The notes beneath the pieces are model-generated. The model was not told where the DNA came from and did no database searches. It was given only the letters and a program-made list of their open reading frames with translations. DNA of 44,285 nucleotides, taken from the sequence record NZ_CP044414.1, one strand, 5' to 3'. Shown here in pieces: positions 14,011-21,282 of this stretch. Both the position numbers and the translations under genes were made by a program. Position 1 is the stretch's first letter. Each line of letters begins with the position of its first letter. The stretch comes from a plasmid.

Positions 14011-14100
14011 CTTAGACGCATCTAATAAAGATGCGTTTTTTGTAGTGTTAAGTTGCTGTAGTCTAAACACTATTTAGCACTGGCACTACTAAATTAAAAA
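14011..14100. repeat. left copy of an approximately 75-90-bp direct repeat bracketing the RiPP-like cassette (includes a hairpin terminator)
   Basis: cttagacgcatctaataaagatgcgttttttgtagtgttaag...tagtctaaacactatttagcactggcactactaaattaaaa. Partner at 21208..21282. Confidence 0.7.
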
Positions 14101-14160
14101 GTAGTATTTAATAAAAATAAGCTTTAAATGAAAAATAATATAAATATTTTTAAAATACTA

Positions 14161-14189
14161 TTGACTTATTAATAAAAAGATAATATTAT
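14161..14189 (+). promoter_or_regulatory. sigma70-like promoter for the precursor peptide gene
   Basis: TTGACT, 17-nt spacer, TATTAT. Confidence 0.5.
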
Positions 14190-14259
14190 TGCCCTAATTT
14201 CCAAATGAACTACATCCATTTAGAAAGAAATATCTTTTTACTGAAAGGAAGTATTTTTT

Positions 14260-14403
14260 ATGGAAAAGACTAATGAAAAGAAACAATTTGTTAAAGTTAA
14301 TGGCTTGAAGGTTGAAACTGTTGATTATGACGATAATGTTGAATTGTTAGTTTCATGTTCTGGCTGTCAAGATGAAGATGATGTTTCAGAAGGACAGTTT
14401 TAA
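14260..14403 (+). CDS. 47-aa candidate RiPP precursor peptide
   Basis: MEKTNEKKQFVKVNGLKVETVDYDDNVELLVSCSGCQDEDDVSEGQF. Preceded by gaaaggaag. Not in the ORF track. Confidence 0.5.
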   Translation: MEKTNEKKQFVKVNGLKVETVDYDDNVELLVSCSGCQDEDDVSEGQF

Positions 14404-14417
14404 AGATTAACATTGTA

Positions 14418-18037: not shown

Positions 18038-18047
18038 ATGATTAAAA

Positions 18048-19634
18048 ATGAGTTTTCAAAAATTAATTAAAACTAATTTACTCTTATTCATTGTAATAAT
18101 TGTTCTAGAGCTTTTGTTTGCAGCAGGATCTGCAATCAGTTCGTATATTATACAATTCGCTTATAATCAACTAGTTAAAAATATTCTTCTAGGTTTTTTG
18201 CTAATTATTGCCAGTAGTGTCTTTCTTTCATTCATTTCTTATATTTTGAGCTCGTTAGCTACATATCTTTTTAGTAAGCAGACGCAAAAATATATTCACA
18301 GTATTAGGCATAAATTAATAAGCGAATACTATCATGACAAGGCGCCTAAAGTAGCTGAAATGGAAAATGAATTAAATAGCAATTTACAAGTGCTGACTAA
18401 AAATTATGCCGATCAGTCTTTGAGTATTATCCAATCAGGTTTTTTATTGGTTACGTCAATTAGCAGCCTTCTTCTAATGAATTGGATGCTGACATTGTTG
18501 GCAATAATTCTATCAGTTATTACGCTTTATATTCCCCGCTTTACAAGACAGAAAGCTTCTAATGCAACGCAAAAAGTAGCTAGTAGAAATAGTAAATATT
18601 TGTTAGTTATTGAAGAATGGTTTAACGGCTTAGAAGAATTAAGAAAATATACAGCTTTTAATCAATTAGACTTAGTCATGCAAAAAGTTAGTCAGAATTT
18701 AGAAACAAGTTTCGTAGAAAGAAAAAAGGTAATTTCTGTTGCTGATTTTCTTAACGGATGTGCTAATTCTTTTTCTCAAATTGCGATTACTCTGTTAGCC
18801 GCAATTTTGTTTTTTAATCATCAAGTAACTTTTGGAGTAATAATAGCAGCAGGGAACTTCTCCTCTATGATTTTAAATTGTTTATTGACAATTACTACAT
18901 CGCTAACACGAATTCAGTCAGTTCAAGGTCTTAACAAACAAATTATTGAATCCCAGAAGTTAGTCCCTTTTCATAAAGAAATTAATACTGATGAAATATG
19001 CTCAATTAGTACGCATAATTTAAGCATTTCGTTTAAAAATGGAGAAACGATCTATTTTCCAGATATTCATATTAAAAAAGGCGAAAAAGTGTTGCTTAGT
19101 GGCGACAGTGGTACTGGTAAGTCTACGCTGTTTAAATTAATCCTTAATAAATTACAACCAACTAATGGACAAGTTATTTTTGAAGATAAATATGGTAAAG
19201 AAATTAGTCCTGATTATGCTCAAATAGGATATATTCCTCAGGATGGAAAGCTATTTCCTACTTCTATTATCAACAATATTATTATGTTCAATAATAAATT
19301 GAAAAAGCTGAGTAAAAATGCAGTTGAAAATAATGATTTAAGTAAAGATATAGCTAGTATGCCAAATGGACTTGAAACGGAAATTGATTTAGACACGAAT
19401 AATTTTTCTGGAGGTCAAAAACAGAAAATTATTTTAGCTCGTAATGAGATACATAATTTTTCTATTATTTTAGCTGATGAGGCAACTAGTGCAATAGATT
19501 CAAAAAGTAGCTATCGCATTCTAAAAAATTTAGTATCATCGAATAAAACAGTTATTGTAATAGCGCATAATTTAACTCCAGCCATGGAAAAACTATTTAG
19601 TAGAAAGATTAGCCTTGGAAGCAATAAGAGGTGA
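18048..19634 (+). CDS. ABC exporter, fused permease and ATPase (half-transporter 1)
   Basis: Six N-terminal TM helices. Walker A GDSGTGKST, signature FSGGQKQK, Walker B ILADE. No C39 peptidase domain. Confidence 0.8.
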   Translation: MSFQKLIKTNLLLFIVIIVLELLFAAGSAISSYIIQFAYNQLVKNILLGFLLIIASSVFLSFISYILSSLATYLFSKQTQKYIHSIRHKLISEYYHDKAPKVAEMENELNSNLQVLTKNYADQSLSIIQSGFLLVTSISSLLLMNWMLTLLAIILSVITLYIPRFTRQKASNATQKVASRNSKYLLVIEEWFNGLEELRKYTAFNQLDLVMQKVSQNLETSFVERKKVISVADFLNGCANSFSQIAITLLAAILFFNHQVTFGVIIAAGNFSSMILNCLLTITTSLTRIQSVQGLNKQIIESQKLVPFHKEINTDEICSISTHNLSISFKNGETIYFPDIHIKKGEKVLLSGDSGTGKSTLFKLILNKLQPTNGQVIFEDKYGKEISPDYAQIGYIPQDGKLFPTSIINNIIMFNNKLKKLSKNAVENNDLSKDIASMPNGLETEIDLDTNNFSGGQKQKIILARNEIHNFSIILADEATSAIDSKSSYRILKNLVSSNKTVIVIAHNLTPAMEKLFSRKISLGSNKR

Positions 19635-19640
19635 GTATAA

Positions 19641-21212
19641 GTGTCTTTTAAAGATCTATATGCTGTTAATAGAATAAGAATGATATCGCTATTAGTTCTA
19701 GAATTCCTAACTTCTGGTTTGATAATTGGGGTCAGCTATATTAATACATATCAAATAACGGCTATTAAAGACCGCAAATGGCAACAATTTATTTTCTTGA
19801 TTACTCTATCTTTGATTTTGTTCATTATAAGCTATGCTGGTCTTAATGTTTGTCAGTATTGGATAGAAAAACAAATTCAACAATATAATCATCAAATAAG
19901 ATTTAAAATAGTAGATCATTATTTTTACGATAATAAACCGCATAATGCTGCCCAAGTTCAGAATCGGCTAACTAACGACCTGAACTTAATAAAGGATTCA
20001 AAACTTGCAGTATATACGGATATTCCATATTATTTAGCTCAAATTATCTTTGCATCAATTGGTTTGTTGCTGTTTCATTGGAGCCTATTAATTGTCGTTT
20101 TGATATTGGGAACACTCAGTTTTTATTTACCTAAACTTCTTCGTCCTGCCATGCAAGCAGCTGCTCTAAAGTTATCTCAAGCAAATAAGCAATATTTAGA
20201 TACAGCTGAAAAATGGTTAGATGGCCTATCGGAACTTAAAAAATTTTCAGTGGGTTCACAGTTGTCTAAGATTATGGATCATGCATCTGATACATTAGAA
20301 AGTGCAAATATAGCAAGAAGAGGTACTATGCAAGGCTTAGCTGTATTGAATAAGGCTACCTCAGCGTTGTTACAATTTGTTTTATTAGCCGTTACGGCCA
20401 TATTAGTTACAAACCATATTGTTGTATTTGGTGTAATAGTAACTGTTGAAAGCTTTAGCTCTTATATCAATGTATCAGTTAAGATGCTTGCAACTGAATT
20501 AGGACAGATTCACTCAGTAGATCGTTTAAGCAGGGAAGTTAATGCGGACACAGCTGTAATTGAGCATACGGGCGACTTACAATCTCCAGCTAGTTTAACT
20601 ACAAAAAACGTGTCAGTAAAATTTTCTAACGGGAAAATAATAAAATTTCCTAATTTAAATATAAAAACTGGTGAGAAAATTTTGTTGACTGGTGACTCAG
20701 GATCCGGAAAAACTACTTTATTTAAAGTACTTCTTGGTAAGATTAAACTTCATACCGGTATGATCAATTTTAAAAATAAATATGGTGACGATATTAACAT
20801 CGATAAGGCTAAGATAGGATATATCCCACAAGATCCGATTTTATTTCCTGATAGTATCGAAAATAATATTACAATGTTTAATTCAAAATTGAAAAATAAA
20901 GTGCTAGATTATGTTAAAAACGTTTCTTTTGAATCTGATATTAGAAAAATGTCGCTAGGTCTAAAGACAGAATTAAATTTGCAAAAATTAAATATTTCTG
21001 GAGGTCAACGACAAAAAATTGTGTTAGCTCGGGCTTGCATTCACGATGATGATTTTATTTTGATTGATGAGGGCACTAGTGCTATAGATAAAAAAGCAAC
21101 GCTTGAAATCTTAAAGAAGTTATTAGATGGCCCATACACTGTGATTTTTATAGCTCATAATTTTAATGAAGAAATGTACAGTCTCTTTGATAGAGAGATA
21201 CACTTAACTTAG
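19641..21212 (+). CDS. ABC exporter, fused permease and ATPase (half-transporter 2)
   Basis: GTG start after AGAGGTGAG. GDSGSGKTT, ISGGQRQK, ILIDE. Confidence 0.8.
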   Translation: MSFKDLYAVNRIRMISLLVLEFLTSGLIIGVSYINTYQITAIKDRKWQQFIFLITLSLILFIISYAGLNVCQYWIEKQIQQYNHQIRFKIVDHYFYDNKPHNAAQVQNRLTNDLNLIKDSKLAVYTDIPYYLAQIIFASIGLLLFHWSLLIVVLILGTLSFYLPKLLRPAMQAAALKLSQANKQYLDTAEKWLDGLSELKKFSVGSQLSKIMDHASDTLESANIARRGTMQGLAVLNKATSALLQFVLLAVTAILVTNHIVVFGVIVTVESFSSYINVSVKMLATELGQIHSVDRLSREVNADTAVIEHTGDLQSPASLTTKNVSVKFSNGKIIKFPNLNIKTGEKILLTGDSGSGKTTLFKVLLGKIKLHTGMINFKNKYGDDINIDKAKIGYIPQDPILFPDSIENNITMFNSKLKNKVLDYVKNVSFESDIRKMSLGLKTELNLQKLNISGGQRQKIVLARACIHDDDFILIDEGTSAIDKKATLEILKKLLDGPYTVIFIAHNFNEEMYSLFDREIHLT

Positions 21213-21282
21213 ATGCGTTTTTTGTAGTACTAAATCACTATAGTCTGAACACTATTTAGTGCTAAGACTACTAAATTAAAAT
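21208..21282. repeat. right copy of the cassette-bracketing direct repeat
   Basis: cttagatgcgttttttgtagtactaaatcactatagtctgaacactatttagtgctaagactactaaattaaaa. It lacks the 15-bp left hairpin arm present in the left copy. Confidence 0.7.

Follow-up and report, generated by a model that had tools for sequence, protein, structure and literature searches.

The plasmid DNA analysed here (sequence record NZ_CP044414.1; 44,285 nucleotides, the whole of which is called the window) carries at positions 14,011 to 21,282 a seven-gene cassette that we read, with fair confidence, as a self-contained mobile pathway for a peptide that is ribosomally synthesized and then post-translationally modified (RiPP) of the linear azol(in)e type, that is, of the group called thiazole/oxazole-modified microcins (TOMM) or linear peptides containing azol(in)es (LAP). 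This reading is preferred because a SagB-like protein (B), a TldD-like protein (C), an E1-like protein (D), a precursor with a conserved Cys/Ser core, and operon signals are found together. The cassette belongs to an undescribed, very divergent family from host-associated bacteria. Exact-protein look-ups gave at least 10 divergent versions, in which the gene order precursor, B, C, D, E, and two ATP-binding cassette (ABC) genes recurs. A preliminary description of this DNA had proposed a YcaO-dependent RiPP locus, and remote homology, the conservation of the seven genes, and the conserved precursor support that interpretation.

The window corresponds to a Lactobacillus gasseri plasmid, with 100% identity to six records and 97.6% to p9785L of L. 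johnsonii FI9785. In the list of open reading frames (ORFs), the seven genes are co-directional on the plus strand and, as had been described, tightly spaced, the gaps B/C, C/D, D/E, E/F, and F/G being of 1, 14, 32, 10, and 6 nt. The mechanical ORF of C begins at a TTG codon at 15058, and E has an alternative TTG start at 17159; in both cases the start adopted is the RefSeq start in the L. johnsonii copy. The genes are as follows:

14260-14403, plus strand: precursor peptide gene, 47 aa, MEKTNEKKQFVKVNGLKVETVDYDDNVELLVSCSGCQDEDDVSEGQF (ORF with a ribosome-binding site; homologues in divergent cassettes)
14481-15113, plus strand: B, putative divergent SagB/McbC-type FMN dehydrogenase, 210 aa (sub-cutoff TIGR03605 match and motifs)
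15115-16131, plus strand: C, predicted short single-subunit TldD-type Zn metallopeptidase, 338 aa (hhalign against a TldD profile)
16146-17162, plus strand: D, MccB/PaaA-type ThiF (E1-like) protein with an N-terminal extension of ~100 aa, 338 aa (PF00899, MccB match)
17195-18037, plus strand: E, minimal YcaO-fold protein, predicted ATP-dependent amide-activating enzyme, 280 aa (AlphaFold2 model, profile homology)
18048-19634, plus strand: F, ABC half-transporter (transmembrane domain-nucleotide-binding domain, TMD-NBD), 528 aa (PF00664 and PF00005)
19641-21212, plus strand: G, second ABC half-transporter (TMD-NBD), 523 aa (PF00664 and PF00005)

Precursor peptide and predicted modification enzymes

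The small ORF at 14260-14403, already proposed as the precursor, is, to judge from its relatives, a real and conserved one: a homologous small ORF is the first gene in 10 divergent cassettes, which gives 11 precursors in total. All 11 share the pattern L-x-V ... LL-x-[S/C]-C-[S/C]-[G/A]-C-x-D-E and behind it a short tail of variable length and sequence; L..V, LL, C..C, and DE are invariant. The peptides have the Cys/Ser/Thr-rich core beside the enzymes that characterizes LAP and TOMM loci, with both Cys residues conserved in every precursor. Their C-termini are F, L, D, S, Q, E, and others, tail lengths differ, and the terminal Asn of microcin C-like peptides is absent from the precursors compared. 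Moreover, the core is better conserved across phyla than the enzymes, and this unusual conservation suggests a fixed molecular target. One of the divergent cassettes (L027, 4438-4788) has two precursors in tandem whose cores differ, one being SCSGC and the other CCCGC.

The motifs quoted for the enzymes in the preliminary description are all present, namely RYSYR and PIPYAGN in B, HELFGH in C, GAGGVG and NLSRQ in D, and AHTDKEKAIQSSIYEVIERKAF in E. For E, comparison with curated hidden Markov models (HMMs) gives 24.2 bits against PF02624 (cutoff 25.7), in a match over just 35 residues, and 22.4 against TIGR03604 (cutoff 219). Nonetheless, an AlphaFold2 (AF2) model built from four orthologues shows the YcaO fold with a predicted local distance difference test score (pLDDT) of 83 and a predicted template modeling score of 0.81; its best structural match is the cyclodehydratase McbD, and the second and fourth best are methanogen YcaOs. 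Also, a profile search of 1.84 billion representative proteins retrieved 58 relatives, 46 of them near-full-length, and 26 of these 46 match PF02624 (best 8.6e-53). In hhalign comparisons, the 46-sequence profile reaches 91.7% with E. coli YcaO and 92.6% with McbD, and E95/E98/R99 of E align to E199/E202/R203 of E. coli YcaO. Among the 46 homologues, E55, E58, E95, and E98 are invariant, and R59, R99, and E176 are conserved in at least 90%; the conserved ExxER residues of YcaO proteins reportedly bind Mg and ATP. Because of the modeled fold, the PF02624-positive relatives, the profile alignment, and the conserved ATP/Mg residues, E is predicted to be a true YcaO of unusually small size that keeps an intact acidic ATP/Mg site, which bears out the earlier assignment, although the family lies far from every characterized cyclodehydratase. 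PDB-sequence searches with B, C, and E, either as single sequences or as 4-sequence profiles, gave no meaningful match, and when E, C, and B served as queries in a word-indexed search against 5.8 billion proteins, just close variants of the cassette itself came back.

D passes the curated models as an E1/ThiF-like protein, with a match to PF00899 at 1.6e-27. Its best PDB sequence match is MccB (1e-21, residues 63-328 to MccB 60-327), and in hhalign the D family aligns to MccB at 99.2% (E 2.3e-19) over 231 columns, with D 68-316 corresponding to MccB 65-315; conversely, an MccB query against all plasmids retrieves D at 99% coverage. Within the MccB/PaaA family (microcin C, pantocin A, GrcB, EnfB, and IndF), D is a near full-length homologue of MccB, of the same size, whereas similarity to PaaA is weaker (2e-9). 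D carries an N-terminal extension where MccB has its peptide clamp or RiPP recognition element (RRE), and these ~100 residues are collinear with the MccB clamp in an alignment that in that part is without confidence. The nucleotide-binding motifs GAGGVG, DxD, NLSRQ, and DxGKxK are invariant in 10 D homologues. However, several features of MccB are replaced or missing in D. The Mg-binding Asp (Asp214 in MccB), conserved in ThiF-like enzymes (PMC12596934), corresponds in three independent alignments to the invariant Gly218/Pro220, with no acidic residue nearby; Glu246, part of a GEH(D) motif that is itself invariant, stands at the position of Tyr239; and the CxxC Zn site is absent. No short Asn-terminal ORF lies in the 14-nt gap upstream of D, and, unlike the MccB substrate, the precursor has no Asn end and has a variable C-terminus. 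In the cassettes, the E1-like partner is present and always adjacent, and a YcaO and a SagB-like gene accompany D in every case, unlike in the characterized MccB/PaaA members.

C has no match in Pfam or NCBIfam at E up to 1, no PDB sequence match, and no relatives outside the cassette detectable by the sequence searches, and its structure model (pLDDT 43) is too poor for a confident fold call. Its position comes from comparison with a TldD-type profile of seven members (E. coli TldD and six plasmid-borne, HExxxH-bearing TldD-type homologues). A 4-sequence C alignment gives 91.4% (E 8.9e-7), and the 10-member C family gives 96.5% (E 7.6e-10) over 215 columns, corresponding C 108-328 to TldD 209-473. 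The active-site motifs fall in register: H159-E160-x3-H164 on HEAVGH (H262/E263/H267), EGD on EGD, GILFHELFGHLSEGD on GVLLHEAVGHGLEGD, DDxxIKG on DDEG, and STIC309QK on GVCGK (C454-G-K), being Cys454 of TldD reportedly the third zinc ligand. These comparisons support C as the TldD/PmbA-like HExxxH protein of the preliminary description and predict a short single-subunit TldD-type metallopeptidase. TldD-related proteins that are also short (336-407 aa) and carry HExxxH occur in other apparent Firmicute RiPP loci, of C. botulinum pBOT3502 and B. cereus, where their genes adjoin a precursor, a PqqD/RRE protein, and ABC exporters; these are found by tblastn with E. coli TldD, whereas C is found by no single-sequence or curated-HMM search. 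The pBOT3502 locus (L009, 3829-9766) encodes a PqqD-family protein, a bacteriocin, two TldD-related genes, and an ABC component, and that of B. cereus pFORC47_2 (L010, 669-8548) a radical SAM protein, DUF692, one 336-aa TldD-related gene, and an M42 peptidase. Leader peptidases of the TldD type encoded within the cluster may be more widespread among Firmicutes.

The assignment of B is the weakest of the domain assignments, and its support as a divergent SagB-type dehydrogenase is sub-threshold. B scores 20.8 bits against TIGR03605 (cutoff 78.4; E 2.2e-4), and three of four B orthologues match this model (best 1.7e-5), all under the curated cutoff. The motifs RxSxR, P-x-AG, and K-Y are invariant in 10 B homologues and line up with those of McbC and of the PF00881-positive homologue from L027. 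Then, the SagB-like character proposed previously is favored by the motifs and by the repeated TIGR03605 matches, but none of these matches reaches the threshold. In L027, the nitroreductase-type gene (344 aa, PF00881; 11525-12559) sits after the ABC genes and not before C.

HMM searches had been suggested as a check of these assignments, their failure for YcaO, nitroreductase, or TldD being taken as evidence against the locus. The PF00899 search passes, the YcaO and SagB searches fall short, and TldD gives no match. Literally, these models fail, yet the assignments hold by remote-homology methods, and the failure is attributed to extreme divergence rather than to absence.

The operon signals lie around the precursor gene:

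14161-14189, plus strand: promoter-like site TTGACT-17 nt-TATTAT (consensus scan, 10/12 positions)
14415-14463, plus strand: hairpin and U-run between the precursor gene and B (RNA fold)

A strong promoter had been described at this place; a promoter-like site does exist, but as a consensus match only. A GGAAG Shine-Dalgarno sequence precedes the ATG of the precursor. The hairpin has a dG of -23.5 kcal/mol (z = -4.06), none of 200 shuffles folds as well, and UUUUAUUUUUU follows it. It is likely a partial terminator or attenuator that sets the precursor-to-enzyme ratio; for streptolysin S, a terminator behind sagA is reported in the same arrangement (PMC4786598).

Proposed pathway and alternative explanations

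In the proposed pathway, a single promoter would provide precursor transcript in excess by means of the hairpin attenuator behind its gene. D would bind the conserved N-terminal part of the precursor (L-x-VE ... D-V-E-LL), probably by its own N-terminal ~100 residues, and would present the bound peptide to the minimal YcaO E. With ATP, E would activate backbone amides, and the invariant Cys, possibly also Ser, of [S/C]C[S/C][G/A]C would cyclize to azolines, a step suggested by the fold, the conserved Mg/ATP glutamates, and the composition of the core. B, as a SagB-type flavoprotein, would oxidize azolines to azoles, and C, as a TldD-type Zn protease, would cut off the unmodified leader and/or the variable acidic tail after the invariant Asp-Glu. 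Finally, the heterodimeric ABC pair F/G would export the product and may also protect the producer. The product would probably be a small acidic poly-azole peptide for competition among related host-associated bacteria.

Several observations weigh against this scheme. Among the cassette proteins, only the ThiF and ABC domains pass curated thresholds, and the hhalign comparison of B with single SagB-type sequences is weak (E about 0.03). A Pro-rich (PxPxP) C-terminus is typical of azoline-forming YcaOs, whereas that of E (...EKADSIKNNYRI, ending in ...KNNYRI) is variable among homologues and has no such end. TldD usually acts together with a TldE partner, and a second TldD/PmbA-like gene is found in none of the 10 cassettes; the B. 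cereus RiPP locus likewise has one TldD-related copy. Also, a plain LAP scheme leaves the invariant Asp-Glu behind the core without a function. Moreover, D is unlike known LAP C-proteins, without similarity to McbB; no other enzyme of the cassette is as conserved, and all its nucleotide-binding motifs are kept in the 10 homologues. The architecture that had been called canonical for YcaO pathways departs somewhat from it in the E1-like partner, which is of the MccB/PaaA (adenylyltransferase) type and not a degenerate LAP C-protein.

A possible alternative, which we hold tentatively, is that D is not a docking protein alone but a working ThiF-like adenylyltransferase, as are MccB, PaaA, GrcB, and EnfB. 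D would adenylate the Asp-Glu carboxylate, or the new C-terminus left by C trimming, and the products would be an imide, a (thio)lactone with core Cys/Ser, or a nucleotide adduct, while E and B would modify Cys/Ser in parallel; this explanation overlaps with the azol(in)e pathway and does not exclude it. It can be argued that D does more than dock because its nucleotide-binding motifs are all kept in divergent homologues and its conservation is the highest among the enzymes, D and the precursor being the most conserved parts of the cassette. For comparison, the E1-like C-proteins of LAP systems have perturbed ATP sites and serve for peptide docking only (PMC11256085, PMC12150305), and such perturbation is not seen in D. 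The extent of the alignment with MccB, in both directions of search, points the same way, the invariant GEH(D) at the Tyr239 position could provide a new metal ligand, and the invariant DE followed by a disposable tail recalls the substrates of PaaA and GrcB (PMC12596934). On the other hand, the equivalent of MccB D214 is Gly/Pro in 10 of 10 homologues, without an acidic neighbor in place of the conserved Mg ligand (PMC12596934), and a docking role like that of LAP C-proteins fits D because this Asp is missing. Neither a C-terminal Asn nor a Zn CxxC site is present, and published genome mining counts ThiFs beside YcaOs as docking domains only (PMC12150305).

If D were catalytic, two ATP-dependent activations would converge on one eight-residue core, [S/C]C[S/C][G/A]C-x-D-E, with E acting on amides and D on the carboxylate or the trimmed C-terminus. 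This would give a new scaffold, for example azoles together with a thiolactone, a lactone, or an imide, or else a nucleotide adduct, which would be conserved from lactobacilli to oral Treponema, and D would stand, as a living intermediate, between the catalytic enzymes of the MccB type and degenerate LAP docking proteins. That the cassette is the first YcaO pathway with a working, re-tooled adenylyltransferase as E1-like partner (Asp214 lost, GEH(D) gained) is an attractive but doubtful proposition.

The role of the product depends in part on F and G. Both match PF00664 and PF00005, in agreement with the fused TMD-NBD half-transporters described before, and F also matches bacteriocin/type I exporter models of NCBIfam; a C39 peptidase domain was not found in F. 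The pair is kept in every cassette complete at its 3' end, and from its domains F would be an exporter and possibly an immunity subunit. In the L. paragasseri JV-V03 plasmid (NZ_CP040501, 10754-14548; L001), a single clean deletion equivalent to 14245-17723 removes the precursor gene together with B, C, and D and two-thirds of E from its 5' end, while the promoter region and both ABC genes stay, with 98.7% identity, the promoter-like site being immediately 5' of the remaining ABC genes. This plasmid may be an immunity-only remnant, and an immunity or export function under selection is suggested because JV-V03 keeps the ABC pair alone behind the same promoter. JV-V03 is a lactocillin-producing strain; a relation of the cassette to its lactocillin thiopeptide cluster was considered and rejected, since the JV-V03 plasmid has just the backbone and the ABC pair in common with the window.

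The JV-V03 plasmid also bears on a further, rather unlikely explanation, in which the product is not antimicrobial but a signaling or metal-binding peptide acting through CxxC-DE, with the ABC pair purely as exporter. A core better conserved than the enzymes would be unusual for bacteriocins and more typical of ligands with a fixed receptor or metal, and no dedicated immunity gene is recognizable in the ORF list or in the Pfam and NCBIfam scans. However, retention of the promoter and the ABC pair without the biosynthetic genes fits immunity better, no sensor or regulator gene accompanies the 10 cassettes, and the plasmid-borne, patchy, horizontally moving spread is typical of bacteriocin loci.

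It is improbable that E performs other YcaO chemistry, forming a thioamide or an amidine, with a different redox role for B. The missing Pro-rich C-terminus of E, the distance of its family from characterized cyclodehydratases, and the methanogen YcaOs in second and fourth place among the structural matches, which form thioamides, would agree with it. Nonetheless, the best structural match is a cyclodehydratase, McbD, and azolines require just those nucleophiles that are invariant in the core. This chemistry is considered less likely because TfuA or another sulfur-delivery gene is present in none of the 10 cassettes and the SagB-like gene is co-conserved.

Finally, a decayed remnant, or a housekeeping ThiF/YcaO pair without peptide product, is very improbable: three of the four enzymes are annotated as 'hypothetical' and fall below curated HMM cutoffs, but across 10 divergent versions all seven ORFs keep their integrity and order, with catalytic motifs and precursor conserved, and the cassette occurs in unrelated plasmid and chromosomal contexts. 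The housekeeping pair, raised in the preliminary description, is effectively refuted by the conserved seven-gene unit and its precursor.

Relation to known systems

Functionally, the closest system to the azol(in)e pathway proposed here is that of microcin B17 (McbA-G plus host TldD/E). Both are plasmid-borne and both cores contain S-C and G-C sites. However, the mcb proteins show no sequence-level orthology: hhalign gives E values of 0.3 for B/McbC and 0.2 for D/McbB, which is noise level, and of 0.009 for E/McbD with the 4-sequence profile, and the likeness between E and McbD is detected solely with the 46-sequence profile. The cassette core consists of one motif of 5 residues with DE behind it, whereas that of microcin B17 is a long Gly-rich tract. 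Also, the cassette encodes its own protease, without TldE, while microcin B17 relies on host TldD/E; it has no McbG-type immunity gene; and its E1-like protein, of the MccB type, keeps the nucleotide-binding site intact, unlike that of the microcin B17 system. An mcb operon orthologue was rejected as an identity for the cassette, since similarity to the mcb locus of E. coli pJJ2434_2 (L015) is at motif level only and the precursor is unrelated. For this comparison, the frameshifted mcbC of L015 (8126-8975) was reconstructed by hand; it is readable only after two frame changes, which indicates a pseudogene or a sequencing error.

A microcin C-like system was likewise rejected because the cassette has no Asn-terminal peptide; the validated mccABC of L. 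johnsonii NCC 533 (MHRIMKN) is a separate, chromosomal locus. Another comparison is faecalisin from Enterococcus faecalis, also an uncharacterized Firmicute TOMM family (predicted only; Cox et al. 2015, PMC4603692). As in the cassette, its C and D proteins are discrete, D being closest to McbD and C unlike other TOMM C proteins, and ABC transporters, two 'hypothetical' proteins, and, in some clusters, two precursors are present. However, the faecalisin precursor, with a Gly linker, a Cys9 run, and a different leader, is unlike the cassette precursors throughout, and the identity was rejected on this comparison with the published precursors. Enterococcus does not appear among the sources of 30 E homologues looked up, most of which carry no source name.

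Full-text literature searches by peptide motif, and by plasmid or species together with YcaO, found no description of the locus. In the 2015 TOMM census, some YcaOs of L. helveticus, which may or may not belong to this cassette (such as UniProt J4BQQ1 and J3X9X7 of strain R0052), figure only as 'orphans' that lack precursors; a 2024 survey of ThiF-like RiPP enzymes covers Streptococcus and Enterococcus only; and a 2025 survey excluded ThiFs beside YcaOs. The cassette is a previously unannotated RiPP family in well-studied commensals, within a YcaO-dependent RiPP logic that is established and not categorically new. Rule-based genome mining may well miss it because three of the four enzymes are 'hypothetical' and lie under standard HMM cutoffs. 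Its carriers include lactobacilli that are commensals of humans and animals and probiotics (gasseri, johnsonii, helveticus, and taiwanensis), L. brevis, and oral Treponema, and, if the product is antimicrobial, it could have a role in strain competition in gut and vagina. For enzymology, the very small YcaO (280 aa) and the single-subunit TldD-like protease would be minimal enzymes, and the cassette bears on whether E1-like YcaO partners are always inert docking modules.

Distribution and plasmid setting

The divergent cassettes come from L. gasseri, L. helveticus, L. johnsonii, L. taiwanensis, Levilactobacillus brevis, Treponema putidum, and a Tissierellia metagenome-assembled genome (MAG) with a truncated locus. 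L. johnsonii also has a chromosomal variant at 56%, and an L. iners MAG is among the sources of a B homologue. Genome and metagenome scans gave mostly near-identical copies, plus one truncated Tissierellia locus. When the six most distant cassettes (L022-L028) are compared with the proteins of the window, the identity ranges are:

Precursor: 36-57%
D: 34-52%
E: 26-34%
C: 26-30%
B: 23-41%
ABC proteins: 21-27%

These comparisons show, at the level of sequence, a conserved, mobile unit that moves between plasmid and chromosomal sites. In a metagenomic cassette (L028, 5778-7004), a 408-aa hydrophobic, apparently multi-pass membrane protein is encoded between the ThiF-like and YcaO genes.

The segment had been described as more AT-rich than its surroundings, and GC is indeed 0.27-0.32 over 13.5-21.5 kb against 0.33-0.41 in most of the flanks. 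The cassette is bracketed by a direct repeat of ~70 bp:

14029-14099, strand not assigned: left copy of the direct repeat (82% identity to 21211-21281)
21211-21281, strand not assigned: right copy of the direct repeat (alignment with the left copy)

The left copy coincides in part with the 3' half of the terminator hairpin of Phd/ParE (14014-14038), and a terminator-like fold was looked for in the right copy (21211-21281) and not found. Homology to the chromosomal copies starts at 14080 (L006) and 14137 (L003), by the inner edge of the left repeat; on the right, it stops at 21202 in L003 but reaches 21419 in L006, so only the left boundary is consistent. The repeat may be a footprint of cassette movement.

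The plasmid backbone with partition and toxin-antitoxin genes mentioned in the preliminary description is confirmed around the cassette by ParA with DUF5388, Phd/ParE, and RepA, together with insertion sequence (IS) fragments. At 6848-10437, ORFs of 340, 141, and 729 aa have the size and order of nrdF-nrdI-nrdE, the class Ib ribonucleotide reductase genes, as annotated on the JV-V03 plasmid. There are two genes for ParA-type partition ATPases, at 12182-13283 (with the DUF5388 gene) and at 24135-24920, while RepA is encoded at 25469-26602, and IS/transposase fragments lie at 10462-11733 and 23040-23624. The two ParA genes, RepA, and the IS/transposase fragments suggest a mosaic or cointegrate plasmid.

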